DNA of 64,000 bases from a virus. The stretch is from positions 64,001 through 128,000 of IMG/VR virus record IMGVR_UViG_3300045988_166055. The stretch is one strand, 5' to 3'. This document shows positions 19,763-58,209 of this stretch, one piece after another; the first letter of the stretch is position 1, and each line of letters starts with the position of its first letter. The translations under genes and the position numbers were made by a program. The notes beneath the pieces were generated by a model that did no database searches, was not told the DNA's origin, and worked only from the letters and a program-made list of their open reading frames with translations.

Positions 19763-20965
19763 TTGGATCAGCTTAAGAAAGTTGCAAAACAAATACCTAT
19801 AAGACACAATGTATCTATCCGAGTAATTGATCCTACTTCCGGAAATGTTGTATCCGAGCATACAGGTCACAATGCTGCAACTAATTCATTAGTTACCGGA
19901 ATTGCTCACTACTTAAAGGGCGACGGTGTCCTTAACCAAGGGTATCATATGCTAAGTTCGTATGTCCCAATGTACATATCATTAGGTACAATGGGATTGA
20001 TAAATCAAGAATCAGATTCTGAAGGGCTTCCGTCAGGTCTAGGAGTTATAAGCTATAAAGATAAGTATCCAAATGATCCAGATCTAGAGGAAGCAAACAG
20101 ATTTGTTGATTATCTAACACAGACTCCTGGATACGGTGCAGACGGATACGACCCAAATGAAAATAATGGTCGAGAATATCTAGGTCTAGGTCCTGTGTTC
20201 GAAAAAAGAGTGCATAAAGAAATAAAACAAGAAATCCTACAGATTGGTGATATAAACTTTGATGGTAAAGTAGACTATCAAGATGTTATGCTACTAGTTG
20301 ATTACAATTGCGGTGTTAAACAGCTTTCTGAAAAGCAACTTTTCGTTGCTCAAGCAGACGAAAACGGATCTGTATCTTGTGAAACTGTTCAGAAGGTAAA
20401 AGATTGTGCAGAAGGAAAGATACTTCCATCCGAACTAGGTACAGCTATTTATCAGCCTAAGAGTGCTCCAACAGTAAATTGCGAGCTTATATCTGAATCA
20501 TTTCCAAGAGCTAAAATTGCATTCAGAGATATTGTACCTGAAACGGAAGCAGAATTTCCTCAAACAGTTGATGTTGTGTATAGTGCAATGATATCTACAG
20601 GAGCACTTTCGCAATTTAGAGAAACAGATAAGGATTATATCTACATTACAGAGGCTGGTCTTTGGTCTAAGCCTGATTGGTCAGACGGAGGCGACAACGG
20701 ATTGCTTGCCGGTTACAGAATATCTCCTCCTAACTCTAACAATTGGAAGATGGCTGAATGGGATACACAGAGACATGTTTATTTTGATTCACCAGAATGC
20801 AAAGAAAACAGACGAATTCTAAAACAAAATATAATCAAAGTTAAACGAAATCAAATAGTACAAGTTGTGTGGAAGATACAGATAGGCGGAATGGATCAGC
20901 TTGGAGGAATAATGAGCCTGTACCCGCACTACTCACCGACTCTTAAATGGATAAATTGGGAATAA
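19763..20965 (+). CDS. tail fibre / receptor-binding candidate with an internal dockerin-like module
   Basis: TTG start 8 nt after AAGGAG; last large gene of the baseplate module; GDINFDGKVDYQDVMLLVDY matches a dockerin Ca-binding repeat. Confidence 0.55.
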   Translation: MDQLKKVAKQIPIRHNVSIRVIDPTSGNVVSEHTGHNAATNSLVTGIAHYLKGDGVLNQGYHMLSSYVPMYISLGTMGLINQESDSEGLPSGLGVISYKDKYPNDPDLEEANRFVDYLTQTPGYGADGYDPNENNGREYLGLGPVFEKRVHKEIKQEILQIGDINFDGKVDYQDVMLLVDYNCGVKQLSEKQLFVAQADENGSVSCETVQKVKDCAEGKILPSELGTAIYQPKSAPTVNCELISESFPRAKIAFRDIVPETEAEFPQTVDVVYSAMISTGALSQFRETDKDYIYITEAGLWSKPDWSDGGDNGLLAGYRISPPNSNNWKMAEWDTQRHVYFDSPECKENRRILKQNIIKVKRNQIVQVVWKIQIGGMDQLGGIMSLYPHYSPTLKWINWE

Positions 20966-20977: not shown

Positions 20978-21355
20978 TTGAAGAAGGTAATACATGCTGC
21001 TGAAGAAGAATACAGTCAGATTCTATTTACTCCTTCATCTCTAGTTGATTTCTTAACTCAAGTAGACGAGCTTAAAGATGTCAACATAGGCGTAAATGAT
21101 GACGGAGAAAATGTTTCAATCTCTATCGGGGATTCAACATATCAAATAAATCCTAAGTCAGTTACAAATATTGATGTATCTGATGATGATCTAGATCAAG
21201 CTTGTCAAGCGAACGAAAGTAATTATGACGAGCTTGAAGAGTCAGGTTCAATTGAAGTGAATGATTCAGTTGAATCGGGAATCATAAAACAGCTATTAAA
21301 GACCTTAGCAATAGGCGGAATAGTACGTTTAGCTGCTAAGGAATTGAAAAATTGA
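20978..21355 (+). CDS. acidic hypothetical protein
   Basis: TAAGGAG SD; TTG 20978 has better spacing than GTG 20969; acidic, with an amphipathic C-terminus. Confidence 0.5.
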   Translation: MKKVIHAAEEEYSQILFTPSSLVDFLTQVDELKDVNIGVNDDGENVSISIGDSTYQINPKSVTNIDVSDDDLDQACQANESNYDELEESGSIEVNDSVESGIIKQLLKTLAIGGIVRLAAKELKN

Positions 21356-21366
21356 GGTATTGGAAT

Positions 21367-22752
21367 ATGAAAGATACTAGAAAGAAGATTGTATCTGATA
21401 TAGAATCAGAAAAGCCCAAGAACCCTGTCATTGGAATATTTGAAGGTGAGTGTGCTGATTCAAACATAACAAATGAGAATGGACTAGATATAACTAGACC
21501 TGTATGGGAAAACATATTTAGTTCTGAATCGTATCAGCAAGCTATTGAACTTGGATGGTACATAGGATTCCTAGGACATCCCGATGATCCTGGATGTATG
21601 GACTTCCGAAATGCTTGTATTGTAATGACAGAAGGACATATAGATGATAACGGAAAAGTATATGGTAAATTTAATCTGATTGATACTCCTGTTGGTAGGA
21701 CAGTTAAAACATTCATAGACGCAGGTGTAACATTCGGAATTTCTGTAAGAGGCGCAGGGGACATTGTAAACAATTCTGTTGATCCTGATACATTTGTATT
21801 TAGAGGATTTGACCTTGTATCGTTTCCTGCGTTTCCTGAAAGCATCCCTACTTTTACATCGATTGCAGCTTCTAGCGATGTAGAGTCCCAGAAGAAGTAT
21901 AAAGCAATTTGTGCAGCAGTTAAAGAGAATCTACCTAACATTGATAGCTGCGAAGCTATTGATATTCTACAGTGTCAGTTTGCTGAACAGTCTGATGAAT
22001 ATAAAGCTTTAGAAGACAGAAAGAAAGAAATAAAAGGATGTAATTTAACTGACGATGATTTAAGTGAATGCGATGATGTAGACATTACAAAAGATAAAGT
22101 AGAGTCAATGACAAAACTTTATCTAGAACAGGTAGAAGCAAACAATCATCTGAAGAAAGAAAATCAAATTCTTTCAAGTAAATTAGCTTCAAACGAAATT
22201 GAAGCAAGACGAAAGATTTCTTCTATTAGTAGAATAACAGCAGATCAGATAAAATGTGCAACAGATGCAAAGGATGCTGCAGAGAAAAGATGCAAGCAAT
22301 TAGTTGCAGCGTCAATCAGAATGAAAGAGACGATTTCGCAAGAAAGATCAAACAACCTTAAATATCTACAGAAGATAAGCGAAAGCAAGAATATTGTTGA
22401 TTCTAAGGATTCTTTAATTTCTTCTCTAAAAACCAGACTCAATGAAACCGTCAATGCTTCTGCTAATGTAGAGAGAAGAACTTCAAACCTTGACGAACAG
22501 TTAAAGCGATCCAAGGCTGAAATAGTAGCTTGCAAAAAGATGCTTAAAGATTATCAGGATGCTTATGCAGAACTGTATTCGCAAGCAGTTGGAGCTGATC
22601 TTCAGAAGGTTAAAGTAACTGAATCAACAAGTGTAGCTTCACTTCGTTCTGCTATTACAAGCTCAATAAGTAGAAAACCATCCTCTATTAGAGAGCCTGA
22701 AGAAATTGATGTAGATGATTGTTACTTTGACGATGACATGGTAACTATTTAA
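21367..22752 (+). CDS. prohead protease / scaffold-like protein
   Basis: Sits directly upstream of the capsid gene; globular N-terminus (FLGHPDDP...GISVRGAGD), long coiled-coil C-terminal half. Confidence 0.45.
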   Translation: MKDTRKKIVSDIESEKPKNPVIGIFEGECADSNITNENGLDITRPVWENIFSSESYQQAIELGWYIGFLGHPDDPGCMDFRNACIVMTEGHIDDNGKVYGKFNLIDTPVGRTVKTFIDAGVTFGISVRGAGDIVNNSVDPDTFVFRGFDLVSFPAFPESIPTFTSIAASSDVESQKKYKAICAAVKENLPNIDSCEAIDILQCQFAEQSDEYKALEDRKKEIKGCNLTDDDLSECDDVDITKDKVESMTKLYLEQVEANNHLKKENQILSSKLASNEIEARRKISSISRITADQIKCATDAKDAAEKRCKQLVAASIRMKETISQERSNNLKYLQKISESKNIVDSKDSLISSLKTRLNETVNASANVERRTSNLDEQLKRSKAEIVACKKMLKDYQDAYAELYSQAVGADLQKVKVTESTSVASLRSAITSSISRKPSSIREPEEIDVDDCYFDDDMVTI

Positions 22753-22783: not shown

Positions 22784-24151
22784 ATGATCACTAAGCGTTC
22801 CACTGCTCCTGCCCGCAGACCTGTCACTGCCGGTCAGAGCATTACTTCTGGCGTTCGTAATCGTAACGCTTCCGCTATTAAGTCCTCAGTAAATCTTACT
22901 CCGTCACAGAGAATGTTCGCTAATCAGATCGCTCGTAACTGTAGAAAGCCTGGCGCTATCATGGCAGCTACAAATACATCAAACATCATGGCTCGTCCCG
23001 ACTTCCTGGACCTGCTGCCTGTGTTTGTTCAGAAGCTGATTGTAACTGACATCTTCGGTTCCGTTGCGATGCGTTCTCGTCAGCAGCTGGTTCCTTACTT
23101 CAAGTTCATTGCTGAGAACACTAAGGGAGAGACCAAGTCTGGTACCGTTATGTCTTCTCCGTTTGCTAACCGCCAGGGCGTTGATCCTAACTTTACTGGT
23201 CGGGTAGTAAAGAACGAAGAGGTTGACGGTCAGCTGATGTATACTCCTGTTCTGCCTGGCACTGTTACCATTAAGAGCGCTCAGGGAGTATTCGTTGATA
23301 AGGGTGACGGCAAGCTGTACAAAGCCGATACTCAGGAAGAATCAGGAACCATTGATTATGCTACCGGCGAGATTGGCACCCTGACAGGTGACATGACTGC
23401 TACCTACCAGTACGACAATGAGACTGTTGGTCCTGACACCAATGGCCAGTACGGTGCTAAGATGGGTAAGGGTTACCTGCAGCTTGATGAGTTCAATCTG
23501 GTCGCTGAGGCCAAGGAGCTCGCTTGCTACTGGAGTATCTATTCTGCATTTGCTGCTCAGCAAGAATATGGTTCCAACATCGCTGACATGGCCAAGGAGG
23601 CCGCTGTTGGTGAGATCACTGCTGAAATCAACACCTCTTGCCTGGATATGCTGATGCAAGCAGCTTCTTACAAGCCTGCTTTCAACTGGGATGCTTCTCC
23701 TGTTCTGTCTGGTGCAGTTGTTCCTTCTGATTACCTGAACATGTTCAAGCTGAAGCTGGGTCAGGCTGCTGCTTCTATCTACCAGCAGACTCGCATGACT
23801 CGCCCGAACCGTCTAGTGGTAGGTACTACCGCAGCTGAGTACATCGGCATGATCAACGGCTTCAAGGGTGACAACATCGATGACACTGTTGGTCCTTACA
23901 AGTTCGGTACTCTTGACCAGTTCGAGATATATGTCAATCCTTCTTACGATCCTGATTCTTGGGTCATGTGCTGCAAGAGTAACGACATTAGAAAGAACAC
24001 GGCTCTGTTCGGCGAGTATATGCCTATCACCAACACTGATGTGGTTGGTCTGGCTAACATGTCCGCGCAGCAAGGCTATGCCACAATGTACGCAAGCAAG
24101 GTCGTCAACCCTGCCACTTGCGTGAAGGGCAAGATCCTAGGCACTTTCTAA
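22784..24151 (+). CDS. major capsid protein (candidate)
   Basis: 455 aa; strong SD TAGGAGAG; marked shift to CTG/AAG/GGT/CGT codons (high-expression style); strong terminator downstream; follows the scaffold-like gene. Confidence 0.65.
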   Translation: MITKRSTAPARRPVTAGQSITSGVRNRNASAIKSSVNLTPSQRMFANQIARNCRKPGAIMAATNTSNIMARPDFLDLLPVFVQKLIVTDIFGSVAMRSRQQLVPYFKFIAENTKGETKSGTVMSSPFANRQGVDPNFTGRVVKNEEVDGQLMYTPVLPGTVTIKSAQGVFVDKGDGKLYKADTQEESGTIDYATGEIGTLTGDMTATYQYDNETVGPDTNGQYGAKMGKGYLQLDEFNLVAEAKELACYWSIYSAFAAQQEYGSNIADMAKEAAVGEITAEINTSCLDMLMQAASYKPAFNWDASPVLSGAVVPSDYLNMFKLKLGQAAASIYQQTRMTRPNRLVVGTTAAEYIGMINGFKGDNIDDTVGPYKFGTLDQFEIYVNPSYDPDSWVMCCKSNDIRKNTALFGEYMPITNTDVVGLANMSAQQGYATMYASKVVNPATCVKGKILGTF

Positions 24152-24277: not shown

Positions 24278-26092
24278 ATGGGTGGACACATAAAGGTGCC
24301 GGATAATGTGTTTAGAAAATGCGAAATTTGCGGAGATACATTTCATCCTAATACATATAGACAAAGAACATGTGGAAAGCCAAAGACAAAAACTTGTCCC
24401 GTTTGCGGAAAACAATTTGAATATTCATGCAAACCCGATTATATTAAAACCACTTGTTCAAGGAAATGCGCGGATATACTTGCTAAGAAAGTTAGAAACG
24501 ACAATTCGGAAAAGCTAACTAGAAAATGTGCATATTGTGGAAAAGAATTTACGCCTAAGACAAAAAAAGATATTTATTGTAGTGGCCCACACTACAAGAA
24601 TTGTGAAGTATGCGGAAAAGAATTCGAGTTTGATGTAAGAGGATATTCTAACATAAAGACTTGTTCTAAAGAATGTAGATATAAATTATCATCTAGAAAC
24701 AAAGACATTGAATCTATGATTCGGAATCATAAGAAAACAATGACTGAAAAGTACGGTGTTGATCAACCTATGCACATTCCTGGAGTAATAGAAAAGATCA
24801 AGGAAACAAATCGAGAAAGGTACGGATCAGATTGGTATACGCAAACTTCGGAATACAAGAAATCAGTTGAAGAAACTTCATTATCCAGATATGGAGTAAA
24901 ACATTTTCTTTCAAGCGAAGATGTTAAGAATAAAAGAAGAGATACATGTAAAGAAAAATATGGATTCAGCAACTATGCTTTTCTTATGGTTGATCACCCT
25001 GAAAAACTTGAAAAATGGATTGAATTCAGAAAAGACGGAAAGAAGTACATATCAGAGAACTATTCAGAAAAGCCTACTAGAAATCAGCTATCAGAAGATT
25101 TAGGAGTATCATATTCTACTATTTCTCAAGAAATACGACTGAAGGGCTTAGATGATTATGTAATGTGTAATGTATCTTACATGGAAGACGAAATAGTAGA
25201 CGAGCTGAGGAAACTGATTCCTGATGTTCAAATCATTCGAAGATGTAAGAATTTAATAACACCGTATGAATTAGATATTTATCTACCTGAATATGAAGTT
25301 GCAATAGAATGCAATCCAACTTATACGCATAATTCGTCTACAAGTAGTTTCACAAATAAACCAAAGCCTATTAGATACCATCAAATGAAAACAGAAATGT
25401 GCGAAAGAAAAGGTGTATTTCTTTTTCATGTATTTGGTTATGAATGGTACAGCAGAAAAGAAATCCTACTTAGTATGATAGGTAATCTTTTAAGATGTAA
25501 TAGAAATAGGGTATATGCTCGAAAATGCAAACTAATTGATGTTTCGTCTAATGAATCTAGATCATTCCTAGAATGTAATCATAGACAAGGAGAAGCGTCA
25601 GCATCAATTAAGCTAGGACTAACTTACAATGACGAGTTAGTTAGTTTGATGACATTTGGAAAGCTAAGAGGAACAATTGGCACAGATAAATCGGATACAT
25701 CTAATTGCTGGGAATTAGTACGGTTTTGTTCTAAGTTAGGCACAAATGTTGTTGGTGGCGCAAGCAAGCTATTCAAATACTTTGTTGATAATTACAATCC
25801 AGAAGAAATAAGATCATTTTCAGATAGGGCTCATACAAAGGGAAATTTGTACTATAAATTAGGATTCCATGAATTGCGAAGATCTGACCCCGGGTATGTT
25901 TGGGTTGAACTTGCTACAGATAATCCTGTTAATAGAGTAACTGTACAGAAATCAAATATAAAATCCTTTCTTCATGATGATTCAATTGACCTTTCTCTTA
26001 GTGAATCGGAAATAATGATTCAACACGGTTTCGTAAAGGTATTTGATTCAGGCACAATAACATGGCAGTTGAATAAACAAAAATCGTTATAA
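24278..26092 (+). CDS. multi-zinc-ribbon protein with HTH and PD-(D/E)XK-like nuclease region; homing-endonuclease-like selfish gene candidate
   Basis: Four CxxCGKxF...C(S)xxC units; HTH (LSEDLGVSYSTISQEI); DIYLPEYEVAIECNP nuclease-like motif; free-standing between a terminator and the next operon. Confidence 0.45.
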   Translation: MGGHIKVPDNVFRKCEICGDTFHPNTYRQRTCGKPKTKTCPVCGKQFEYSCKPDYIKTTCSRKCADILAKKVRNDNSEKLTRKCAYCGKEFTPKTKKDIYCSGPHYKNCEVCGKEFEFDVRGYSNIKTCSKECRYKLSSRNKDIESMIRNHKKTMTEKYGVDQPMHIPGVIEKIKETNRERYGSDWYTQTSEYKKSVEETSLSRYGVKHFLSSEDVKNKRRDTCKEKYGFSNYAFLMVDHPEKLEKWIEFRKDGKKYISENYSEKPTRNQLSEDLGVSYSTISQEIRLKGLDDYVMCNVSYMEDEIVDELRKLIPDVQIIRRCKNLITPYELDIYLPEYEVAIECNPTYTHNSSTSSFTNKPKPIRYHQMKTEMCERKGVFLFHVFGYEWYSRKEILLSMIGNLLRCNRNRVYARKCKLIDVSSNESRSFLECNHRQGEASASIKLGLTYNDELVSLMTFGKLRGTIGTDKSDTSNCWELVRFCSKLGTNVVGGASKLFKYFVDNYNPEEIRSFSDRAHTKGNLYYKLGFHELRRSDPGYVWVELATDNPVNRVTVQKSNIKSFLHDDSIDLSLSESEIMIQHGFVKVFDSGTITWQLNKQKSL

Positions 26093-26144
26093 TAATTGTA
26101 GATAGAAATGACTTATCAAAATTTATCGAAAGGAACAAAGTTTT

Positions 26145-27032
26145 ATGACAAGAGAAGAACAACTTTCTACTATTAAGCAGCTTCGTGATCTTACAGCAGA
26201 TCTTGAATGGCAGCAGGATACACTTGATGAACTTGAATGGAGCAGCTACGATCCTCCTGTAAAGCCTGTTTTGAAAACATATACCAAGCCTGCATACCCT
26301 GAGCCAGAGTCTTCCATGAGGTTCAACTGGAAGGTTTTCAACTACTTTTGGGCTATTACAGCTCTTATTTTTCTTGGCATCTGTAAGCTGTTTGATACAC
26401 CTATTTTTCTGCTTCTTCACGTAGCTATTACCATTGGATACGTCATGAAGTATCGTGAAATGAAAAAGGCTGATGTTGAGAAAGTTAGAAACTCTGCTGA
26501 ATTCAAAGCTAAGTTGAAGCAAATTGATGATGACTACGACAGTCTGGTTTATGCAGCTAAAGCGAAATACGAAAAGGATATGGATGAATGGAAGAATGAT
26601 TTGATGCCTAGATACGAGATCGACAAGGTCAAGTACGAAGCAAAGAAACGTGAAGATATTGCTAACTGCAAAGCCGCTATCACTCATGACAAGCGAGAAA
26701 TTTCTCGTATTTATGGTGAGACTAAAATCCTTCCTACTGCTTACAGGTCTCTTCCTATTCTAGAATACATTGAAGAATTCATGGCTTCTTCTAACTTCGA
26801 TGTAAATCGAGCAATTGAGAACTACGACAGAGAACAGCAGAGATGCATTGATGAAAAGAGGTTCCAGCAGGAGGTTTATTACAATCAGCTTCAGGAGCAA
26901 ATGGTTGATGCTCAGGAAAGAGCAAACAGCATTGCAGATAGAGCTAGACGCGATGCTAACAGAGCAGATTTTGTTGCAGCTGTTCAGCGTCATAACACTA
27001 ATAAGCATTTGAAGAGGATGGCTGAGAAGTAA
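26145..27032 (+). CDS. membrane-anchored coiled-coil protein
   Basis: Hydrophobic span FNYFWAITALIFLGICKLF...LLLHVAITIGYV, then a charged helical region. Confidence 0.55.
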   Translation: MTREEQLSTIKQLRDLTADLEWQQDTLDELEWSSYDPPVKPVLKTYTKPAYPEPESSMRFNWKVFNYFWAITALIFLGICKLFDTPIFLLLHVAITIGYVMKYREMKKADVEKVRNSAEFKAKLKQIDDDYDSLVYAAKAKYEKDMDEWKNDLMPRYEIDKVKYEAKKREDIANCKAAITHDKREISRIYGETKILPTAYRSLPILEYIEEFMASSNFDVNRAIENYDREQQRCIDEKRFQQEVYYNQLQEQMVDAQERANSIADRARRDANRADFVAAVQRHNTNKHLKRMAEK

Positions 27033-27033
27033 T

Positions 27034-27426
27034 ATGAAGAGAGAGAAAGGTGTAAGACATTATTGGGAGATTACTCTTGGCACAGAGACATTTCAAGAAA
27101 AATACAAAGGTGGAGTTTTATGGTACTTGAAACACGATTTTAGGGTACCTCCTCTGCATCCTACACTTCATAACTCATCTTTGGAATCATGGCTGAATGA
27201 CATCAAAGATGGAAATGCAGAAAATGTACCAGATTGGCTTATAGAAAATGTCAAATTCGTAGAAAGTAAATCGTTCAAATGCGATGATTGTGGGAAGATT
27301 GTTTATGAACCAAATCAAGCAATCATCATTCCGGGATACACATTACATTTCTGCTCATATAAGTGTGCTTGCGATTATGGCTTAGGTTGTTACAGACTTT
27401 CTGTTCAAGATGCACTTGATCTTTGA
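27034..27426 (+). CDS. small protein with C-terminal FCS/TRASH-type zinc finger
   Basis: CDDCGKIV...HFCSYKCACDYG. Confidence 0.55.
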   Translation: MKREKGVRHYWEITLGTETFQEKYKGGVLWYLKHDFRVPPLHPTLHNSSLESWLNDIKDGNAENVPDWLIENVKFVESKSFKCDDCGKIVYEPNQAIIIPGYTLHFCSYKCACDYGLGCYRLSVQDALDL

Positions 27427-27429
27427 TAA

Positions 27430-27448
27430 GAATCGTTATATTAAGTAT
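27430..27448 (+). promoter_or_regulatory. class A box
   Basis: GAATCGTTATATTAAGTAT. Confidence 0.5.
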
Positions 27449-27485
27449 CTAACATATCAAAACTTGAATACTAGAGGCTACTAAC

Positions 27486-28052
27486 ATGACAATTGCTTAC
27501 TTTGAAGGAAAGAAATACACTACCTGCAAAGATTTAAGAAAAGCTGTATTTGAATGGTGTATTGAAAAAGACATTATTCTTCCTAGCGGATCCTCTATAG
27601 TAAATCTTTGGAAACACTGGAAGATAACAAACAAATATATAGATGTTTTGTCTAGAATTGATATTGTAGATGATAGAGGTGAATTTAGACCCGATAGAAT
27701 TAGATATGTCATTGATGACAAATTCTTTGACAACACAAGCTCGCTGTATCGATATATTGATTTCTATCACAGAAGAGACATTGAGCGTGTTCGAGAAGAG
27801 AACATCAATATGTATCTTTTCAATTCTAGATTTGATACAAGCAAAATGAATTTGAAGAACAAGGTTAAAGTAGTATTTCTTCCTAAAATTTATTGCCCTA
27901 AATGTCATAGAAAGATTTTCCTTGGTGAAAATGTATTTCACACAGATAAAATGTCTAACTATTGTTCGTATGACTGTTTACCTGAAGGTGAAAGATATAT
28001 TCAGAGAATATTAAGAATGGAGGATTTGCTCTATGCCCCAGCGGTCGTATGA
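27486..28052 (+). CDS. small protein with C-terminal FCS/TRASH-type zinc finger
   Basis: CPKCHRKI...NYCSYDCLPEG. Confidence 0.55.
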   Translation: MTIAYFEGKKYTTCKDLRKAVFEWCIEKDIILPSGSSIVNLWKHWKITNKYIDVLSRIDIVDDRGEFRPDRIRYVIDDKFFDNTSSLYRYIDFYHRRDIERVREENINMYLFNSRFDTSKMNLKNKVKVVFLPKIYCPKCHRKIFLGENVFHTDKMSNYCSYDCLPEGERYIQRILRMEDLLYAPAVV

Positions 28053-28218
28053 ATATAAAGGTGTAACAATCTATCTTTATTACTATGGGTGTTTTCTTTT
28101 CTACGCTGAAAAGAATAAATATGGGCTAAAGCACGGACGGTGGAAATGGATTAGTTTTTGCAATACAGATGAAGCGGAACAATTCATAGACAAGCATATA
28201 GATACTTTCTGTTGGTGA
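28033..28218 (+). CDS. hypothetical protein (61 aa)
   Basis: ATG after GGAGG SD; overlaps the upstream 3' end. Confidence 0.5.
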   Translation: MPQRSYEYKGVTIYLYYYGCFLFYAEKNKYGLKHGRWKWISFCNTDEAEQFIDKHIDTFCW

Positions 28219-28237
28219 ACCTTATATTTTTATGTGA
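28215..28237 (+). promoter_or_regulatory. class B box
   Basis: GTGAACCTTATATTTTTATGTGA. Confidence 0.5.
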
Positions 28238-28321
28238 TAGGCGGGAGATACTATATCTTTCGTTGTATGATGAAGTTAATAAAAAACAAAGATCACATAA
28301 ATCATTTTGGAGGTTATCTAA

Positions 28322-28726
28322 ATGAGTTACAAGATTACTATTAAGTTCACCAAGCCTGTTAAGGTTGAAGCATCTATTCCTACTTATCCAATTGCCCCTG
28401 AATTTGTTCTGGGTCAGTCTTATGTGGATGAGAAGGCTTTCCGTGACCAGGCAGGCGATACCGCTTATTCCAAGAACATTTGGGAGAAGGGTGAGTTCCT
28501 GATGGCTCAGGACCTGTCTGAGTTCCTAGGTGAAGTTTCTGTCCATCCTGGTGTTGTTCTTGCTTGCAAGTCCGCTATTCTGGCTGCTGAGGCTGCCGAA
28601 GCTTCTTCTGGTGAGAATGCTGGTTATGAGTTCATAACTGATGACTACAAAGACAAGATGCTGTACGAAGAGATCGGTCGTGCTCTTGCCGGTCAGGGAT
28701 TCGAGGTAACTGTCGACCCTACGTAA
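28322..28726 (+). CDS. abundant small virion protein candidate (134 aa)
   Basis: SD GGAGG; same G+C-rich, CTG/AAG-type codon usage as the capsid gene. Confidence 0.65.
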   Translation: MSYKITIKFTKPVKVEASIPTYPIAPEFVLGQSYVDEKAFRDQAGDTAYSKNIWEKGEFLMAQDLSEFLGEVSVHPGVVLACKSAILAAEAAEASSGENAGYEFITDDYKDKMLYEEIGRALAGQGFEVTVDPT

Positions 28727-29403
28727 AGGGTCAGGTTGATATTTCAGCTTCTGACGGAGAGGATGCTATCCAGAAAGCCATTTCAGCTAATCCGTCAGGA
28801 GCTTATATCAAGCTGGCCCAGAATGTCTACCAAGGTGGCATTCAGGCAGAAGCTGGATCAAACATCACTATTGATCTAAATGGACATGAGCTAAAATGCG
28901 TGCCTCCATTTGTCGGATCTGATAGTAGCTATTCAAACGGATTGAGATTCATGAAGGGTTCAAAAGTTCTAATTAAGAACGGAACTGTCAAAACATCTTC
29001 TCCGGAGTTAGCTATTCTTATTCAGAACTTCGCAGACGAGTTGATTCTAGATAATGTAACATTGTCTGGAAAGCTTTCTACTCAGTACATTCTATCAAAT
29101 AACTTCGGAAATGTTGTTATGAAGAATGGAACTACTGTAAAAGCATCTGGTGGTCATGTAGCATTTGATGCTCATTACGGCTTATCTCCTGAATATGACG
29201 ATGGTGTTACAGTAAATATTGCGGATGACACTGTTAAGATAATTGGACTTGTAGAATATACTAAGCAGGAAGGAAAGTCAGATGAAGATTTCCTATCAAG
29301 GACACATATCTACATACCTGTTGGATATGACCTTACTGCTCCAGAGGGATACAAGTTCCAGTTAACAGAAGATAAAACAAGACAAGAACTAGTTAAAGCG
29401 TGA
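28720..29403 (+). CDS. beta-helix-like domain ORF in the -1 frame with no usable start; candidate frameshift extension of 28322-28726
   Basis: Frame open from 28645; no ATG/GTG/TTG before GTG 28900, which has no SD; the region upstream of 28900 reads as good protein (DGEDAIQKAISANPSGAYIKLAQNVYQGG...). Confidence 0.5.
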   Translation, partial: YVKGQVDISASDGEDAIQKAISANPSGAYIKLAQNVYQGGIQAEAGSNITIDLNGHELKCVPPFVGSDSSYSNGLRFMKGSKVLIKNGTVKTSSPELAILIQNFADELILDNVTLSGKLSTQYILSNNFGNVVMKNGTTVKASGGHVAFDAHYGLSPEYDDGVTVNIADDTVKIIGLVEYTKQEGKSDEDFLSRTHIYIPVGYDLTAPEGYKFQLTEDKTRQELVKA

Positions 29404-29425
29404 TAGAGAGGAGGCCTAGTAAGAT

Positions 29426-30136
29426 ATGACTATGGATGAAGTAACTGCTCAAGTTGGATTCTTACTAGGCTTTCCTACTAACGAGAATGTAGAAGAGGTT
29501 GATCTAAGGCAAGCAGTATTGATTGCATTTAGAGAACTAAAAAGATACATTCGTCAGTCAGTGGAAAAGACTGTCCCGTTTCAAACTAGAATAGACTTGC
29601 TCAAGCAAGATATCCATACAAACAAAGTTCTCAATGTTCAAGCTGCCTATCCTAGAATAGGCCTTACAATGAGTAACATAGACAGTGGTAATGTTTTCCA
29701 GGTTGCTGCCGCTGTAAACGCCTATAGTACGATAGGCAACACAAGTTCAATCAACATAGATCCTATAATGTCTGAACTTGCAATGGCTCAAGTCCGTAAC
29801 ACAATTTCTACTGATTTTCAATGGAAATATGATCCGTATAATCAAGTAGTTTATGTTACGCACAGAGATCCATTACCTGCAATGGTAACTATACGATATG
29901 TTCCAGATTTGCAGGATGTATCAGAGATTCAAGGAACAACCTGGATTGACTACTTAGTCCGGATGAGCCTAGCATTCGCAAAAATATCGTTAGGCAGATC
30001 TCGGTCAAAATATACAATTGAGGGCTCTAATGTAACACTTGACGGTGATACACTTCTTCAAGAAGCTAACGCAGAGTTAGAAGCTATAAGAGGTGAACTT
30101 GAGCCTAAGAAAAGTAGACTTGTTGTTTTGAACTAA
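29426..30136 (+). CDS. hypothetical virion-module protein (236 aa)
   Basis: SD GAGAGGAGG; context among structural genes. Confidence 0.6.
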   Translation: MTMDEVTAQVGFLLGFPTNENVEEVDLRQAVLIAFRELKRYIRQSVEKTVPFQTRIDLLKQDIHTNKVLNVQAAYPRIGLTMSNIDSGNVFQVAAAVNAYSTIGNTSSINIDPIMSELAMAQVRNTISTDFQWKYDPYNQVVYVTHRDPLPAMVTIRYVPDLQDVSEIQGTTWIDYLVRMSLAFAKISLGRSRSKYTIEGSNVTLDGDTLLQEANAELEAIRGELEPKKSRLVVLN

Positions 30137-30161: not shown

Positions 30162-30563
30162 ATGTTTGTTTCTAAGAAAAACACTAAGAAGGTAACTGCT
30201 AGCGACGATCTGGATACCGAAGTGATTGAGCCCGAAATGGATGAAGATGTTGTCGATGACACTCCTGATGCTGATGAAGATGTAAATGTTGCCCCTGAGG
30301 CAACTGATCTTCTATTTGAAGCAGAGGATGTAGCGCAGCTGGTTGCAGAAGTGACTGGTCAGCCTGTCGATGTTGACACAGCTGAAGATGGTAATTCTGT
30401 TGAATTCACTGTCGGTGAAGATGTTTTCACTGTTACTGCTGAAGGTGACGAGGAAGTTCTGGAAGCTGTTCGAAAGCCACTGAAGAAAAAGAAGCCTGTG
30501 TCTGCTTCTACTAATAGAAAGCCTGCTGGTAAGACCGTTCGCAAGCTGCCTAGCAAGAAGTAA
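30162..30563 (+). CDS. bipolar protein: very acidic N-terminal part, basic C-terminal tail
   Basis: DDLDTEVIEPEMDEDVVDD... then KKKKPVSASTNRKPAGKTVRKLPSKK; G+C-rich codon style. Confidence 0.6.
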   Translation: MFVSKKNTKKVTASDDLDTEVIEPEMDEDVVDDTPDADEDVNVAPEATDLLFEAEDVAQLVAEVTGQPVDVDTAEDGNSVEFTVGEDVFTVTAEGDEEVLEAVRKPLKKKKPVSASTNRKPAGKTVRKLPSKK

Positions 30564-40371: not shown

Positions 40372-40638
40372 ATGGGTTTTGAATTTGCAACATTCGCAGC
40401 AATTACAGTTCTTGCTTATCTTGTTGGTATCGCCGTAAAGGCTTCTTCACTCGACAGCAAGTGGATTCCTGTAATTGTAGGTGCTTTCGGACTTATCGTT
40501 GGTGTAGCTGCTTTCTACATTGGAACTCCTGAGTTCCCTGCAAACGATCCTATTACTGCTGCTGCAGTTGGCGTCGCTTCTGGGCTTGCTGCAACTGGTA
40601 TCAACCAGGCGGTTAAGCAGCTATCAAGCAAGGAATAA
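40372..40638 (+). CDS. holin-like small membrane protein
   Basis: 88 aa, two or three hydrophobic spans, charged C-terminus (NQAVKQLSSKE). Confidence 0.5.
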   Translation: MGFEFATFAAITVLAYLVGIAVKASSLDSKWIPVIVGAFGLIVGVAAFYIGTPEFPANDPITAAAVGVASGLAATGINQAVKQLSSKE

Positions 40639-40694
40639 GCTGATACCATAGCGCCCAGTGGTGTCAGCCAGGCGTGTTCATGGTTTTCATAAAG

Positions 40695-40788
40695 TACCTC
40701 CTTTCTTTAGGGTAGGCAGGATCTCACGGTCCTGCCTATTCCTATGTTTACTTAAGAATCGTTATTGTAATCATAAGAAAAGGAGGTA
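40695..40788 (+). promoter_or_regulatory. anti-SD / terminator / class A box / SD arrangement
   Basis: TACCTCCTTT (40695-40704) is complementary to AAAGGAGGTA (40779-40788, the SD of ATG 40795); box GAATCGTTATTGTAATC at 40756-40772. Confidence 0.5.
40713..40750 (+). terminator. hairpin terminator candidate
   Basis: TAGGCAGGA-TCTCACGG-TCCTGCCTA (9 bp) then TTCCTATGTTT. Confidence 0.5.
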
Positions 40789-41703: not shown

Positions 41704-42231
41704 ATGACAGACGCCCAGGAGAAGCTAATAGTTGATAATTATCAACTTGTACATGGATTTGTTCATAAGTATGGCCAATCATTTGGTCATGAATATGATG
41801 AATCTGTACAGATAGCTTCTCTTGGGCTTTGTTATGCAGCTCTAAAGTATGATGAAACAAAATCAAAGTTTTCAACTTATGCTTATCAATGTATGATGAG
41901 AGAATTCTTGAAACTAGAAAGATTGAAGAAAGCAAAGCGGAGAGACTTCTCAACTATTTCAATTCAAACTCCTATTCAAAATGTAAAAGGTGAAGAGTCT
42001 GGTTGTCTTGAGGACATTATTTCATATGATGAATTAGGATTCCAAGAAATAGAAATAAAGGATCAAATCGAATACGCACTGTCTAGATTCAGTGGAAAAC
42101 AATTAGAAATAGTTAAATATTTCATAGAAAACGGAAAATGTAATCAAAAGACTGTAGCTAAATTATTTGGAGTATCTCAATCATACATATCTAGAATACT
42201 TAGAAGGTTCAAAAATCTAATAGAATATTAA
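41704..42231 (+). CDS. phage-encoded sigma-70-family sigma factor
   Basis: Region 2 (DESVQIASLGLCYAALKYDE..FSTYAYQCMMREF) and region 4 HTH (KTVAKLFGVSQSYISRILRR). Confidence 0.85.
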   Translation: MTDAQEKLIVDNYQLVHGFVHKYGQSFGHEYDESVQIASLGLCYAALKYDETKSKFSTYAYQCMMREFLKLERLKKAKRRDFSTISIQTPIQNVKGEESGCLEDIISYDELGFQEIEIKDQIEYALSRFSGKQLEIVKYFIENGKCNQKTVAKLFGVSQSYISRILRRFKNLIEY

Positions 42232-53193: not shown

Positions 53194-53268
53194 TGGGGCG
53201 TAGCCAAGCGGAAAGGCAGTAGACTTTGACTCTATTATTCGCTGGTTCGAATCCAGCCGTCCCAGCCA
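53194..53268 (+). tRNA. tRNA-Gln (anticodon UUG)
   Basis: Acceptor TGGGGCG/CGTCCCA, loop CT-TTG-AC, T arm GCTGG-TTCGAAT-CCAGC, encoded G-CCA. Confidence 0.85.
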
Positions 53269-53469
53269 GTGGTCAATTAGCTATTGACTGATGTCAGAGT
53301 AATCAGCTAACCTGACAAAGAATGAAAATGATCGCTGAAAACTGCTACTAAAGGATTCGTCCTCATTATTCACCTTAAGATAGTGGCTAGTTATTTGTGG
53401 ATTACTAGTTGATGATGATTAGCGTGACAATCTAAGCGGTAAGCTGATGAATAGTTAGGAGGAACATAA

Positions 53470-53853
53470 ATGAAAATTCTTCGTCATCAAAACATAGAAG
53501 GAATGGCGAGAGTTGGATTTACTTCAGATAGCTACGAAGTATACGTCAATACAGACGATGGTGGAAAAATTCCTCACTTTCATTACAGACTGAAAAATGA
53601 TTGGAATAAGTTTCACACATGTATAAAAATTGAAAGTCCTGAATATTTTCATCATACAGGTAAAGAAAGCGTGTTGAATTCTAAACAAATTAGATCGCTC
53701 ATTCGATTTCTTAAGTCATCTGTATCTCTATCACAATATAGTGAAAAATTTTCTAACAACTTTGAATTGATTATTTTTCTATGGAACATAAACAATTCGG
53801 ATGTTATAGTTGATCCTGAAACAAAAATTCCTGATTACTATCAACTAAATTAA
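53470..53853 (+). CDS. hypothetical protein (127 aa)
   Basis: SD TAGGAGG; GGKIPHFHYRL motif. Confidence 0.6.
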   Translation: MKILRHQNIEGMARVGFTSDSYEVYVNTDDGGKIPHFHYRLKNDWNKFHTCIKIESPEYFHHTGKESVLNSKQIRSLIRFLKSSVSLSQYSEKFSNNFELIIFLWNINNSDVIVDPETKIPDYYQLN

Positions 53854-53855
53854 AT

Positions 53856-53877
53856 CCAATCGTTATTAAGTATGTAG
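53856..53877 (+). promoter_or_regulatory. class A box
   Basis: CCAATCGTTATTAAGTATGTAG. Confidence 0.5.
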
Positions 53878-54040
53878 CAGCTAGTAAGCTGTAACATAAG
53901 GAGCTCACAATCCTGCCGAAATATCTTCTAGAATATTTCCGCACAATATAGAAAAGAGTGGGTGGCAAGGAATATGCCAGGAATGATTCTAAGCTTGACA
54001 TGCAAGTACAACCGGGTGAGAAACTAGTCCCGGTAAATAT

Positions 54041-54115
54041 TGTCAATTAGTTTATGAGGTAAAACATTGTAGCTTAAGATACAATAAGTTGGTTCAATTC
54101 CAACATTGACAGCCA
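54041..54115 (+). tRNA. aberrant tRNA-like gene with an 8-nt anticodon loop (UAA or UUA)
   Basis: Perfect acceptor TGTCAAT/ATTGACA + G-CCA; D arm GTTT-ATGAGGTA-AAAC; T arm GTTGG-TTCAATT-CCAAC; anticodon stem TTGTA/TACAA closing GCTTAAGA; 3-nt variable region. Confidence 0.55.
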
Positions 54116-54234
54116 TCGGTCATTGTTGACTGACGCCCACCGAATCTGCTATCTTAGATCATCAGTAGCAGATGCAGTTTTCTAGTTCTCTTTTCTGTTC
54201 ATCGAACGTGTTGAAAATAAAGAGAATAATATAT

Positions 54235-54326
54235 GGCGCGATACCGAAGTGGTCATAACGGAGCGGTCTTGAAAACCGTAGGCGGTGATGAGCCGTCCGT
54301 GGGTTCGAATCCCACTCGCGCCGCCA
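54235..54326 (+). tRNA. tRNA-Ser (anticodon UGA), class II
   Basis: Acceptor GGCGCGA/TCGCGCC, loop CT-TGA-AA, long variable arm, T arm GTGGG-TTCGAAT-CCCAC, G-CCA. Confidence 0.85.
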
Positions 54327-54549
54327 TGCCTTTTCATTCAGCTGACATTAGATTGTCAAATTGATGAAAGTGAAACCAACTATGCTGGCAGGTTGTCGAC
54401 GGGTTGAAGAGCCGTAGAGTCTAAACTATTCTCCTCTATTCTAGAAAGAGTCGGAAAGCTAGGCCCCGTAGTAGCAGCCGAAAAGTATCCTAAAACGATA
54501 GGCGTTAAAAAATGTTTTATAGGTGACAGCCCGGAAAGACGGGCATTCT

Positions 54550-54645
54550 CATCTGCTAGAACAATGGTAGTTCAGATAAGTTTATGCTTATTCCGTGTCT
54601 GTTGGTCAATCAGACATTATCTCGGTTCGAATCCGAGGCAGGTGA
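54550..54645 (+). tRNA. atypical class-II-like tRNA look-alike 1 (UAU-type loop, no encoded CCA)
   Basis: Acceptor CATCTGC/GCAGGTG; D arm GAAC-AATGGTA-GTTC; hairpin ATAAG-TTTATG-CTTAT (6-nt loop); extra arm GTCTG-TTGGTCAAT-CAGAC; T arm CTCGG-TTCGAAT-CCGAG. Confidence 0.4.
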
Positions 54646-54649
54646 CAAA

Positions 54650-54977
54650 TGTCTACTGGTCACCATCTACATACGACAATCAAAACTGCATAGGAGATGG
54701 AATTGGCAACGGCAGCCATGATAAGTGAAGCGATGTTCGAGTCATCAACCTGATCCTGTTCGACTCAGGCAGGGCATGGTGCAAAACTTATCAAGAGGAA
54801 CTAAGTACCTGCCTCGCTTCGGATAGCAAAGAAGGCGTTAGTAGTAATCGAAAAACTACTCGCGGTTACAGGGAGGGAGCGGCGTTATAGGTAAACCTCC
54901 TGGGTGTTCTGCTATCGTGCACCTTAGAAAGGCGAAGCTTTTCAGTTAGGACTAATCCGGCCAGATAGCAAAAATAT
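54650..54977 (+). ncRNA. ORF-free, G+C-rich structured spacer (candidate stable RNA)
   Basis: No ORF in the track; several local hairpins; lies between the tRNA look-alike and tRNA-Gly. Confidence 0.3.
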
Positions 54978-55051
54978 GCGGATATAGTGTAACGGTAACA
55001 TGCGACTCTTCCAAAGTCGTGTTGCGGGTTCGAGTCCCGTTATCCGCTCCA
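54978..55051 (+). tRNA. tRNA-Gly (anticodon UCC)
   Basis: Acceptor GCGGATA/TATCCGC, loop CT-TCC-AA, T arm GCGGG-TTCGAGT-CCCGT, T-CCA. Confidence 0.85.
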
Positions 55052-55069
55052 TAGAAGGAGGTGACAAAT

Positions 55070-55405
55070 ATGTCTGTTTATAAATGCCCAGTTTGCGGAG
55101 GAAGAGGATTTGTTACTTGCGGATTCTATTCAAGTCAAACATACGATGGAAGCTCGGTAACTAATTACAATTCAACTGAAGTTTGTAGAAGCTGTAATGG
55201 TAGAGGAATTATATTTGATGAATTCTTAGGATCAACTTCAAATAGTATTCATAGATATTGCAGTAATTGTGAAATGAACGATGGTATGGTGTATCCATCG
55301 TATCCTCCTAAATACAGATGTACTTTATCAGGTAATTTCAATGAAGGAACGCATACATGTAATCTAGATGATATTTTGTCAAAGGAAAATAACCAATCTG
55401 AATAA
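55070..55405 (+). CDS. DnaJ-type CxxCxGxG zinc-finger protein
   Basis: ATG 55070 after GAAGGAGG (3 nt after the tRNA-Gly CCA); CPVCGGRG ... CRSCNGRG. Confidence 0.6.
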   Translation: MSVYKCPVCGGRGFVTCGFYSSQTYDGSSVTNYNSTEVCRSCNGRGIIFDEFLGSTSNSIHRYCSNCEMNDGMVYPSYPPKYRCTLSGNFNEGTHTCNLDDILSKENNQSE

Positions 55406-55449
55406 GTTGATAATCGGTAGGGCGCTGCGGTGTGCTTGACCGTGTTCTC

Positions 55450-55483
55450 CCGTCCGGGTGTTGGCGCATCCGGACGGCTTTTT
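55450..55483 (+). terminator. rho-independent terminator
   Basis: CCGTCCGG-12 nt-CCGGACGG then CTTTTT. Confidence 0.75.
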
Positions 55484-55518
55484 CTATCTAGTAAATTATT
55501 AACGAATGATTAAGACTA

Positions 55519-55553
55519 TTGACTTTTCATAAGAATCGTTATATAATATGTAC
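55519..55553 (+). promoter_or_regulatory. class A box with a canonical -35
   Basis: TTGACT (55519-55524), 17 nt spacer containing AAGAATCGTTA, then TATAAT (55542-55547). Confidence 0.65.
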
Positions 55554-55600
55554 ATAAGTCAGCCAACACATCAAAAAGCTTCAAAGCTAAGGAGGAAAAA

Positions 55601-55915
55601 ATGAACGGATACATTATCAAAGCTACATACCTCACAGGTCCGCATAAAGGAGCATCTTATTTCCTTCAAAAAGGCGGATATGTAACATCCGATCCCGATG
55701 ACCAGTGGTCAGATAACTGCTACAAGACAGAAAACATCTGCAAGTCAATTTGCATGAAGCTTGAAAGAAGCAACATGGCTGAAAACGTAGTAGAGAAAAG
55801 AACAAGAGAGTATAGATCTCAAAAAGGGTACAATGTATCCGATTTCATGATCTACGAATTGATGAAATATGAACCGTATTTTGTCAAAACTGTTCACAAT
55901 TCGGATGTTTTCTAA
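55601..55915 (+). CDS. hypothetical protein (104 aa)
   Basis: SD AAGGAGG. Confidence 0.6.
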   Translation: MNGYIIKATYLTGPHKGASYFLQKGGYVTSDPDDQWSDNCYKTENICKSICMKLERSNMAENVVEKRTREYRSQKGYNVSDFMIYELMKYEPYFVKTVHNSDVF

Positions 55916-55928
55916 GGAGGTATTCACA

Positions 55929-56201
55929 ATGATCATCAATTCTCGTTTAGAAGCAAGGAAGTCTGTTAAGGATAACTTCGAGCTCGCTTGTAAATTTCAA
56001 ATGACAGTCATCAATGTCTTTCATAAGGACTTGATTACAGGTGAAATTGTTCTCACTGATATGTTCAGCCACGATAGTATTCAAGCCGTTACATGGAGAG
56101 ACGATTACCTTGAATCGTTAAAGAAGCTAGAGGTACCTTACATTTGCTATGTGGGAGATCATTTCACAGAATCATCTGGCTACTTAGACTTTGAGGAGTG
56201 A
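55929..56201 (+). CDS. hypothetical protein (90 aa)
   Basis: ATG 55929 after AAGGAGG; the track start at 55869 is less likely. Confidence 0.55.
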   Translation: MIINSRLEARKSVKDNFELACKFQMTVINVFHKDLITGEIVLTDMFSHDSIQAVTWRDDYLESLKKLEVPYICYVGDHFTESSGYLDFEE

Positions 56202-56206
56202 CAATC

Positions 56207-56491
56207 ATGGATAGAAAAGTTTTTGAAGCTTTATCTTCTGCAAATAAATTGATCAACCATCAACTTGATTGTCAAAAGGCCGCTATTCCTGATATACAAA
56301 AAGCTATTGAAGAAACAGCGAAAGCTTTCAATATCACTTACAAACAAGGCCGCAGTGAAGGATTTGAATCCGAAACTATTGATGATATAGCAGAAATTTA
56401 CGGATATCTAATCGGAGCTAAAGGTGCAATTGAAGCGGTCATATCTAAGTTAGAAGGAGCAAAGAATATGATGTCTAATTTTGATAAATGA
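56207..56491 (+). CDS. hypothetical protein (94 aa)
   Basis: ATG 56207 after GAGGAG. Confidence 0.55.
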   Translation: MDRKVFEALSSANKLINHQLDCQKAAIPDIQKAIEETAKAFNITYKQGRSEGFESETIDDIAEIYGYLIGAKGAIEAVISKLEGAKNMMSNFDK

Positions 56492-56894: not shown

Positions 56895-56915
56895 CAATCG
56901 TTATATAAAATGTAG
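56894..56915 (+). promoter_or_regulatory. class A box upstream of tRNA-Leu
   Basis: ACAATCGTTATATAAAATGTAG. Confidence 0.5.
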
Positions 56916-56926
56916 TAATCAAATTT

Positions 56927-58118: not shown

Positions 58119-58209
58119 TCACATCCTATAGGATGTGTTAAGTGTGATATATGGTAACAGATTCCGACCTAAGCGCACGGGTCTTCTAGAGGCCTTCGGA
58201 ATCGAATAT

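Follow-up and report, generated by a model that had tools for sequence, protein, structure and literature searches.

A window of 64,000 nucleotides (nt) of viral DNA, corresponding to positions 64,001-128,000 of the IMG/VR record IMGVR_UViG_3300045988_166055, contains a small gene, designated A, that is followed in the -1 frame by an open reading frame (ORF), designated B, which lacks a start codon of its own. All coordinates given here are window positions. Together, A and B very probably constitute one conserved cassette for programmed -1 ribosomal frameshifting in a T4-like gut phage, belonging to a gene family that has not been described. In the proposed mechanism, most ribosomes would translate A, a protein of 134 residues, and stop at TAA 28724, and a minority would slip back by one base at C_GAC_CCU (28714-28720). 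The likeliest event would be the re-pairing of tRNA-Pro from the CCU at 28718-28720 to the CCC at 28717-28719. Reading would then resume at UAC 28720, with base 28720 being read twice, to yield an A-B fusion of 360 residues and 39 kDa. The predicted junction reads ...GFEVTVDP-YVKGQVDIS..., and the predicted tryptic peptide spanning it is ALAGQGFEVTVDPYVK. The driver would be a very stable hairpin of 27 base pairs (bp), the base of which lies downstream of the CCU codon at a distance of 7 nt. Possible helpers are the rare ACG codon, the stop codon that follows it, a Shine-Dalgarno (SD)-like GAGGT located 11 nt upstream, and a phage tRNA-Pro(UGG). The efficiency of frameshifting is probably low, on the order of 1%.

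The two reading frames

The features of the locus are listed in Table 1. The GGAGG sequence that precedes gene A is consistent with strong expression. When 50 ORFs of the window were scored for their codon preference relative to that of the Gp23 capsid gene, A ranked at the top after the capsid gene itself with a value of 0.333 per codon. The next-best ORF reached 0.113, and B scored -0.311. Such codon usage, capsid-like in A and ordinary in B, would fit an abundant A and a minor A-B product. The -1 frame, in the codon phase of position 28720, is open from 28645 to the TGA at 29401-29403, and the earliest ATG, GTG, or TTG within it is the GTG at 28900. This codon was rejected as the start of B. 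It is not preceded by an SD sequence, it is replaced by GTA and GTC in the related contigs L002 and L007, respectively, it would cut a domain that is conserved in homologues, and selection acts 5' of it. Gene callers shorten B to 125-240 residues by the use of false internal GTG or TTG starts. No in-register X_XXY_YYZ heptamer was found in gene A (28322-28726) by codon listing and inspection by hand. The sequence GAC CCT ACG TAA occupies positions 28715-28726, such that the -1 codon CCC falls at 28717-28719, and the mass computed for the predicted fusion of 360 residues is 39.0 kDa.

Much of this anatomy had been laid out in an earlier reading of the sequence, hereafter the original prediction. 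The end of gene A at TAA 28724, the opening of the -1 frame at 28645, the lack of any ATG, GTG, or TTG before a GTG 28900 that is without an SD sequence and would truncate the domain, and the capsid-like, high-expression codon usage of A were all borne out on the sequence. The absence of a heptamer, claimed for the overlap, holds for the whole of gene A.

Conservation of the arrangement and selection on B

The A/B junction is the same, and free of insertions or deletions, in eight contigs, namely the window and seven IMG/VR contigs of 75-149 kb, despite many substitutions among them. All seven of these closest contigs derive from one metagenome, 3300045988. Gene A has the same end in protein clusters (P0011 with 80 members and P0010 with 102) whose sequences come from independent assemblies of other samples in ENA, NCBI, and Logan. 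There is no homopolymer at the junction, where the longest runs are CCC, AAA, and GGG. The two-frame arrangement is kept in every distant relative examined, and all relatives have a complete B that is without a start codon and lies one base back (-1) from the frame of A. Whether relatives keep it was a check put forward in the original prediction, and the arrangement of the two frames is, as judged from these comparisons, more than chance.

Across the contigs of the clade, the ratio of nonsynonymous to synonymous substitution rates (dN/dS) for B is 0.05-0.14, which is indicative of purifying selection. For that part of B lying 5' of GTG 28900, a comparison with L007 (contig 3300045988_156307) revealed 19 synonymous and 7 non-synonymous changes, and a dN/dS of 0.075. 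The entire -1 ORF, including the portion 5' of 28900, therefore appears to be translated and under selection. Relative to the window, L007 displays a dS of 1.1 in B versus 0.25 in A. The jump in divergence, at L007:4100-4684 (approximately window 28822-29403), starts where the 3' arm of the hairpin ends, and suggests a recombination junction at the hairpin end with exchange of the B module.

The proposed shift site and its counterparts in relatives

At the place homologous to the proposed shift site, a canonical slippery heptamer in the correct register, either A_AAA_AAC or A_AAA_AAA, is present in seven lineages that are more distant. Both of these are textbook -1 slippery sequences. The ends of gene A in these lineages and in the other groups of relatives are included in Table 1. 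In several relatives, the -1 frame opens just 5-8 codons ahead of the stop of A, and the shift must therefore be confined to that small stretch in those relatives. In the clades that are not A-rich (the DPT, NPM, SPM, SLM, and SSM groups), the codon at 28720-28722 specifies Tyr (TAC/TAT) in the B frame and Thr or Met in the A frame. This constant Tyr would fit a reading in the B frame from that codon onward.

In the window, the tetramer C_CCU (28717-28720) is the sole re-pairing motif at the place that is set by the hairpin spacing and by homology. Re-pairing of tRNA-Asp from GAC to CGA is impossible, and that of tRNA-Pro from CCU to CCC is perfect. All 16 Z_ZZN tetramers have been tested in E. 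coli (Sharma et al. 2014, PMC4066793). Frameshifting of 0.26-5.6% was obtained in that organism for six of them when a pseudoknot lay downstream, in the order A_AAG >> U_UUC > U_UUU > C_CCU = C_CCC > A_AAA, the main bacterial rule being a cognate re-pairing in the A site from ZZN to ZZZ (PMC4066793). Upstream SD-like elements are described as stimulators of -1 frameshifting (PMC4066793). In E. coli, C_CCU has been documented as a weak -1 motif, and the minimal re-pairing tetramer is present at the window site. The slip of tRNA-Pro from CCU to CCC at 28717-28720, which had been singled out in the original prediction, emerges as the best-supported site on account of its being the sole re-pairing motif there and of the E. 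coli tests of C_CCU (PMC4066793), and with moderate confidence C_CCU is taken as the exact slip site. With respect to the possible helpers, the ACG that follows is the rarest Thr codon (3% of the Thr codons, 1.8 per 1000) and the single ACG in gene A, the SD-like GAGGT is missing in some clades, and a tRNA-Pro(UGG) gene is carried by the phage within the window.

The downstream hairpin

The 110 nt from 28721 to 28830, which contain the hairpin, fold with an energy of -48.1 kcal/mol (z -6.8), and none of 200 shuffled sequences was as stable. Indeed, no other of the 12,778 overlapping 110-nt segments in the 64 kb is as stable (mean -19.9, standard deviation 5.9). The spacer of 7 nt falls within the range of 5-9 nt taken for the distance between slip motif and stable downstream structure in bacterial and phage cassettes. 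Further very stable 110-nt folds on the + strand are found at 2651-2760 (-47.3), 41716-41825 (-46.4), 40636-40745 (-44.2), and 61061-61170 (-43.7 kcal/mol), as compared with the same mean of -19.9.

The same architecture, with a 7-nt spacer after the heptamer, is observed in L019 (-39.3 kcal/mol, z -6.9), L021 (-45.1, z -9.1), and L022 (-54.5, z -5.5), and both recur in the NPM and SPM groups (7-nt spacing in L029, L040, L043). L007 displays the architecture as well, with an energy of -48.3 kcal/mol. The sequences of the inner arms differ between clades. In an alignment of 14 sequences, 89.4% of the cells are paired, and displacing the 3' partner by 1-3 columns lowers this to 24-45%. Ten of the 27 pairs have changed on both sides versus 4.8 ± 1.5 in shuffled alignments, none of 500 shuffles reaching 10. 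RNAalifold returned the same helix with 23 pairs, nine of which show compensatory change. Within the window's clade, every substitution between 28732 and 28814 is located in the apical loop. None of the 15 third codon positions in the inner arms is variable versus 111 of the 204 in the rest of B (p = 1.5e-5), and the comparison without L007 is 0 of 15 versus 52 of 204 (p = 0.025). Note that in L007 the change G28729U is accompanied by C28818A, and a G-C pair is thereby exchanged for a U-A pair. The hairpin is conserved with covariation, and its arms show suppressed synonymous change.

The hairpin was also considered as an intrinsic terminator, and this was rejected, since no U-tract follows it and no terminator was called in 27900-29600. 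A scan of the window against Rfam returned tRNAs only.

The nature of B

The AlphaFold2 model of B is all-β and of high quality, with a predicted local distance difference test score (pLDDT) of 93.9 and a predicted template modelling score of 0.91. Its top fold matches in the PDB are right-handed β-helix enzymes (PL6 alginate lyase, PL3 pectate lyases, and pectin methylesterases), none of which reaches the cutoff of an expectation value (E) ≤ 0.001. The leading match, 7o7t, has a probability of 0.91, a template modelling score of 0.41, and an E of 0.08, which lies above that cutoff. No match to B was found among PDB sequence profiles or PHROG families, and Pfam gave for the window's B nothing except a sub-threshold NPCBM match. 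The homologue P0052, which is 44% identical, matches Pfam Beta_helix (PF13229) over the B region with 26.0 bits against a cutoff of 25.9. The impression of a β-helix that was voiced in the original prediction is partly upheld by the confident all-β model, by the rank of the β-helix enzymes, and by P0052. It finds no backing in a significant fold match or in a Pfam match of B itself. From the model, B is a β-rich domain, probably of the right-handed β-helix kind.

In BFVD, the sole strong match to B is a truncated call of 150 residues, 94% identical, from 'Siphoviridae sp. ctgN495'. A search with a B profile retrieved truncated calls from frameshift loci, tail-fibre-like proteins, and a bacterial SLH surface protein. 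In the tail-fibre-like proteins, of 390-528 residues, the B domain forms the C-terminus and a PF24243 tail tip domain the N-terminus (P0052, P0009, P0059, and P0088 are among the B homologues, corresponding to window 28726-29400). The contigs that encode B-tipped tail-fibre-like proteins reach 214 kb. P0088 is a bacterial surface protein of 879 residues with SLH domains, in which the B domain is located near the N-terminus. The occurrence of the domain in tail-fibre-like tips and in an SLH surface protein therefore makes a glycan-binding or glycan-cleaving role on the virion likely, and B is plausibly a mobile extracellular module with one or the other of these activities.

The nature of A

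Gene A has no match in Pfam, PHROG, or the PDB, and its divergent relatives are likewise without a Pfam or PHROG family. A hidden Markov model search of 1.84 billion representatives returned 31 A-family clusters only, nearly all of them 112-157 residues in length. Some members carry extensions. P0100 and P0117 have in-frame, C-terminal Big_2 Ig-like domains (23.8 bits versus a cutoff of 22.8 for P0100, and 21.4 bits for P0117), L034:566-1648 encodes an A-family member with a different in-frame, β-rich extension of ~220 residues, and L035 and L036 have short, acidic, in-frame tails on A. These in-frame fusions therefore point to the C-terminus of A as a general attachment point for display domains. 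The position of A, its capsid-like codon usage, and the in-frame extensions suggest that A is an abundant head-module protein of the decoration type with its C-terminus as the display point. The frameshift would display a few copies of B per virion on A, where B would probably bind or cleave glycans.

No in-frame A-B fusion was found among 56 B homologues and 31 A-family representatives. The L034 extension was rejected as such a fusion given that its hhalign comparison with the B profile was not significant (E 0.065), as were proteins of 392-393 residues, which proved to be tail-fibre-like.

Points against the frameshift, and alternative explanations

Several observations weigh against the proposed frameshift or against parts of it. 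The A-B product, the product ratio, and the site are all predictions from sequence. The structural role of A rests on position and codon usage, and its AlphaFold2 model is unusable (pLDDT 47.7). The window's clade is without a canonical heptamer, and the GAC in the P site is unable to re-pair in the -1 frame (CGA); the predicted efficiency is therefore low. At the shift position (1884-1890), L038 and L039 possess neither C_CCU nor a canonical heptamer, and yet in both B is intact and start-less and the hairpin stands behind a spacer of 7 nt. The slip codon therefore cannot be C_CCU throughout this subgroup. Additionally, at three variable sites immediately 3' of the stop (28727, 28729, and 28730), the changes are non-synonymous when read in the B frame, which fits a linker and also fits non-coding sequence. 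It is conceivable, albeit doubtful, that most of the signal resides in the hairpin and not in the slip motif, and that an efficient, tuned -1 shift takes place on the barely slippery C_GAC_CCU or on the non-slippery U_UCC_CUU and U_UCC_UCU. Shifting led by the hairpin in this manner may be helped by phage tRNAs such as tRNA-Pro(UGG). If this were true, the family would represent a natural allelic series with one stimulator and at least seven shift sites, and could revise the rules for bacterial -1 re-pairing.

The frameshift might also be real and the slip a different one, either a P-site-only slip of tRNA-Pro with the rare ACG (or the stop) waiting in the A site, or a shift forced by the hairpin on the preceding codons. 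The scarcity of ACG noted above speaks for such a slip, as does the retention of B and the hairpin in the SLM and SSM relatives without C_CCU. With CCU in the P site, moreover, the hairpin base at 28728 would be placed close to the mRNA entry channel, at ~+11 counted from the P-site codon. This possibility is nonetheless unlikely, for the spacing of 7 nt to the end of CCU equals that to the end of the canonical heptamer, whose last codon is the A-site codon. Both versions would yield the same protein junction, and the two are inseparable by sequence. Separate production of B, by re-initiation after TAA 28724 at a non-canonical codon such as ATT 28741, with the hairpin blocking free initiation and coupling B to the translation of A, is quite unlikely. 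It is true that ATT 28741 shares the B frame and does not vary among the eight contigs, that a weak AAGGG lies 10-11 nt 5' of it, that the three variable sites between the stop and the ATT are those non-synonymous in the B frame, and that the canonical heptamer has been lost in the window's clade. The ATT is, however, buried in the 27-bp stem (28736-28742), and its position is not conserved in other clades. There is no good SD sequence in comparison with the GGAGG or GAGGAGG of neighbouring genes, and the AAGGG is broken in L007 (AAAGTG). Re-initiation also leaves unexplained the in-register A_AAA_AAC or A_AAA_AAA of seven lineages, the fixed heptamer-hairpin spacing, and the retention of C_CCU in the DPT, NPM, and SPM groups, and the in-frame fusions to the C-terminus of A show an extension that is used attached to A. 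A hop of the T4 gene 60 type was rejected by hand, there being no ACG, ACN, or CCN landing codon that continues in the B frame within the first ~30 codons; the nearest ACG downstream (28754-28756) is in the A frame. Transcriptional slippage was likewise rejected, as the junction has no homopolymer of about 9 or more A or T, and the relatives have 6-7 A only.

The original prediction had left the choice between recoding and an assembly error. The former is the part that stood, by virtue of the selection on B, the heptamers of the relatives, and the hairpin. That A and B are one continuous gene, or that B has a normal start, and that the assembler introduced a 1-nt insertion or deletion is extremely improbable. 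A shared pipeline is conceivable for the seven closest contigs, given their single metagenome. Against such an error stand the lack of a homopolymer at the junction, the many substitutions by which the contigs have diverged from one another with no insertion or deletion in any, the identical end of gene A in the ENA, NCBI, and Logan assemblies of other samples, and the -1 relation in distant relatives from unrelated samples. Furthermore, beyond the site the residues of A are not those of the B-frame reading, and they end at a conserved stop. Hardly any probability remains, either, for a decaying cassette, in which the ancestor shifted and the loss of the heptamer silenced B, now an unexpressed remnant. 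The replacement of the canonical heptamer by C_GAC_CCU in the window's clade is what such decay would predict. B is intact, however, in the eight contigs and in L040, its dN/dS stays at 0.05-0.14 even at a dS of ~1.1 (L007), and the hairpin arms are invariant against a variable apical loop and flanks. The hairpin of the clade, at -50, is among the most stable folded, versus -29 to -35 in the SPM group, and only that of L022 (-51.2) is stronger.

Genomic context

The cassette is located in a T4-type head module (Table 1). The gene order in relatives is Gp23, variable inserts, an A-like gene (113-138 residues), B, and a PF26809 gp13 gene. The inserts at this place differ: a 562-residue ORF in L016, two DUF7487 genes in L019, and a GIY-YIG/NUMOD3 gene by a short Gp23 call in L022. 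Homing endonuclease genes seem to have a hot spot in the interval between Gp23 and A. Positions 30162-30563, immediately 3' of the gp13-like gene, encode a very acidic protein of 133 residues with a basic tail, the codon score of which, 0.113, is the second most capsid-like. Its product may be another abundant head or scaffold component.

Elsewhere in the window, 17-18 tRNA genes lie within 53194-60892, including Pro(UGG), Thr(UGU), Asp(GUC), Ser(UGA), Asn(GUU), and Lys(UUU). Among the ARAGORN calls, that at 54041-54115 has a two-base anticodon, and the tRNA-Ile(tat) at 58628-58722 is 95 nt in length. A 400-residue ORF at 19763-20965, 5' of the prohead protease gene, has a sub-threshold match to dockerin type I (E 0.005), which may hint at a cellulosome-bearing Clostridia host. 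The host is probably a Gram-positive gut bacterium. The phages are uncultured, and several come from human gut samples (e.g. L019, a Hadza sample). Searches of GenBank phages by blastn with the region, A, and B, and by tblastn, gave no matches; the A-family protein P0098 likewise had none there, and P0117 was matched by its Ig-like part only.

Table 1. Features of the A/B locus and its surroundings in the window, and ends of gene A in relatives.
Feature	Position	Strand	Remarks
Prohead protease S77	21352-22752		T4-type head module
Gp23-type major capsid protein	22784-24151	+	Pfam PF07068, E 4e-21; ancestral upstream neighbour of A, synteny in L016, L022, L040
604-residue homing endonuclease (PHROG 3339/559, DUF7487) and several small ORFs	24278-28218		between the Gp23 gene and A
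SD sequence of gene A, GGAGG	28309-28313	+	8 nt 5' of ATG 28322; read off the sequence
Gene A, zero frame	28322-28726	+	134 residues, 14.7 kDa, acidic; stop TAA 28724-28726
SD-like GAGGT within gene A	28703-28707	+	11 nt 5' of the CCU codon; putative upstream stimulator
Proposed shift site C_GAC_CCU	28714-28720	+	same position as A_AAA_AAC / A_AAA_AAA of relatives
ORF B, -1 frame	28720-29403	+	227 codons, UAC 28720 to TGA 29401; no start codon of its own
Spacer ACGUAAA	28721-28727	+	7 nt; contains ACG and the zero-frame stop TAA 28724-28726
Hairpin, ~27 bp	28728-28819	+	base 7 nt 3' of the CCU codon
Hairpin pairing, basal	28728-28734 with 28813-28819		
Hairpin pairing, middle	28736-28742 with 28805-28811		
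Hairpin pairing, inner	28746-28758 with 28791-28803		
Hairpin apical region	28759-28790	+	
GTG, first canonical start in the B frame	28900-28902	+	not a real start; not conserved
gp13-like head-tail adaptor/neck protein	29426-30136	+	PHROG 211, E 1.1e-7; homologues in relatives carry PF26809 Phage_T4_gp13
Window's clade (DPT group)			gene A end GTC GAC CCT ACG TAA; shift site C_GAC_CCU
L019, L021			gene A end GTA AAA AAC GCA TAA; shift site A_AAA_AAC
L022			gene A end GTA AAA AAC TAA; shift site A_AAA_AAC
L024			gene A end GTA AAA AAC GTG TAA; shift site A_AAA_AAC
L015, L023, L037			gene A end ACA AAA AAA TAG; shift site A_AAA_AAA
L016			gene A end ACA AAA AAA GCA TAG; shift site A_AAA_AAA
L029, L030, L043-45 (SPM group)			gene A end GTT TCC CCT ATG TAA; shift site U_UCC_CCU
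L040-42 (NPM group)			gene A end GTC AAC CCT ATG TAA; shift site C_AAC_CCU
L038 (SLM group)			gene A end GTT TCC CTT ATG TAA; shift site U_UCC_CUU
L039 (SSM group)			gene A end GTT TCC TCT ATG TAA; shift site U_UCC_UCU

Comparison with known systems

No specific prior description of the A-B cassette was found in the literature, the coverage of which was incomplete, such that novelty is not proven thereby. With regard to annotation, the 39-kDa fusion is absent from databases, and B is mis-called in dozens of gut-phage contigs. With regard to biology, uncultured T4-like gut phages would, to judge from the cassette, possess a display system of the head module that has gone undescribed, in which a β-helix domain of low stoichiometry would be carried by an abundant small anchor.

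Among T4-like phages, Hoc and Soc of T4 are dispensable decoration proteins of the head surface that are not known to be made by frameshifting. The inferred A anchor with its display of B or Big_2 matches them as a head-attached surface module with adhesion-type domains. In contrast to Hoc and Soc, A has no sequence relation to any PHROG, Pfam, or PDB entry, and its location on the capsid is inferred.

Extensions of coat proteins made by frameshifting have been described for T7 (10A/10B), T3, the Lactobacillus phage A2, and the Listeria phages A118, A500, and PSA, and Ig-like domains are attached to phage structural proteins either in frame or out of frame (reviewed in PMC5009743). As in the T7 10A/10B type, a short product in the majority and one with a C-terminal extension in the minority would arise here by a frameshift near the 3' end, with an accessory surface domain as the extension, and the domains of the relatives are joined in frame (P0100, P0117, L034) or out of frame (the frameshift loci). 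The present system differs in that the upstream protein is a separate 134-residue protein of no recognised fold rather than the major capsid protein, in that the extension is of ~225 residues and the β-helix type rather than Ig-like, and in that the slip site of the clade is a bare tetramer rather than a heptamer. It also belongs to a T4-like phage, and both of its products are putative virion proteins. In lambda G/GT, too, the ratio of the short to the extended product is set by a conserved -1 frameshift, which takes place toward the end of a small gene (PMC5009743). Unlike G/GT, which lie between the tail tube and tape measure genes, A/B lie between the capsid and neck genes, and there is no sequence similarity. 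G and GT are, moreover, absent from virions, and the G/GT pair is not known to be used by T4-like phages.

The signal itself resembles the bacterial Z_ZZN motifs followed by structure and those of IS3, IS911, and dnaX, with a modular slip motif, a short spacer, a strong downstream structure, and an optional SD-like element (PMC4066793). Unlike the IS3 pseudoknot, the stimulator here is a long, near-perfect hairpin of 27 bp that lies within the part encoding the trans-frame domain, and the purpose, unlike that in IS3, IS911, and dnaX, would be a structural fusion and not a transposase or polymerase subunit. For the study of recoding, the family offers seven shift sites (A_AAA_AAC, A_AAA_AAA, U_UCC_CCU, C_AAC_CCU, C_GAC_CCU, U_UCC_CUU, and U_UCC_UCU) before one conserved hairpin at a fixed 7-nt spacing, a series that is useful for examining the trade-off between the strengths of slip site and stimulator. 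This turnover of slip sites ahead of a conserved hairpin, along with the systematic mis-annotation of B, is notable in its own right. As compared with these systems, the mechanism is one already known for viruses, the gene family is undescribed, the slip site is unusual and weak, and the hairpin is very strong.

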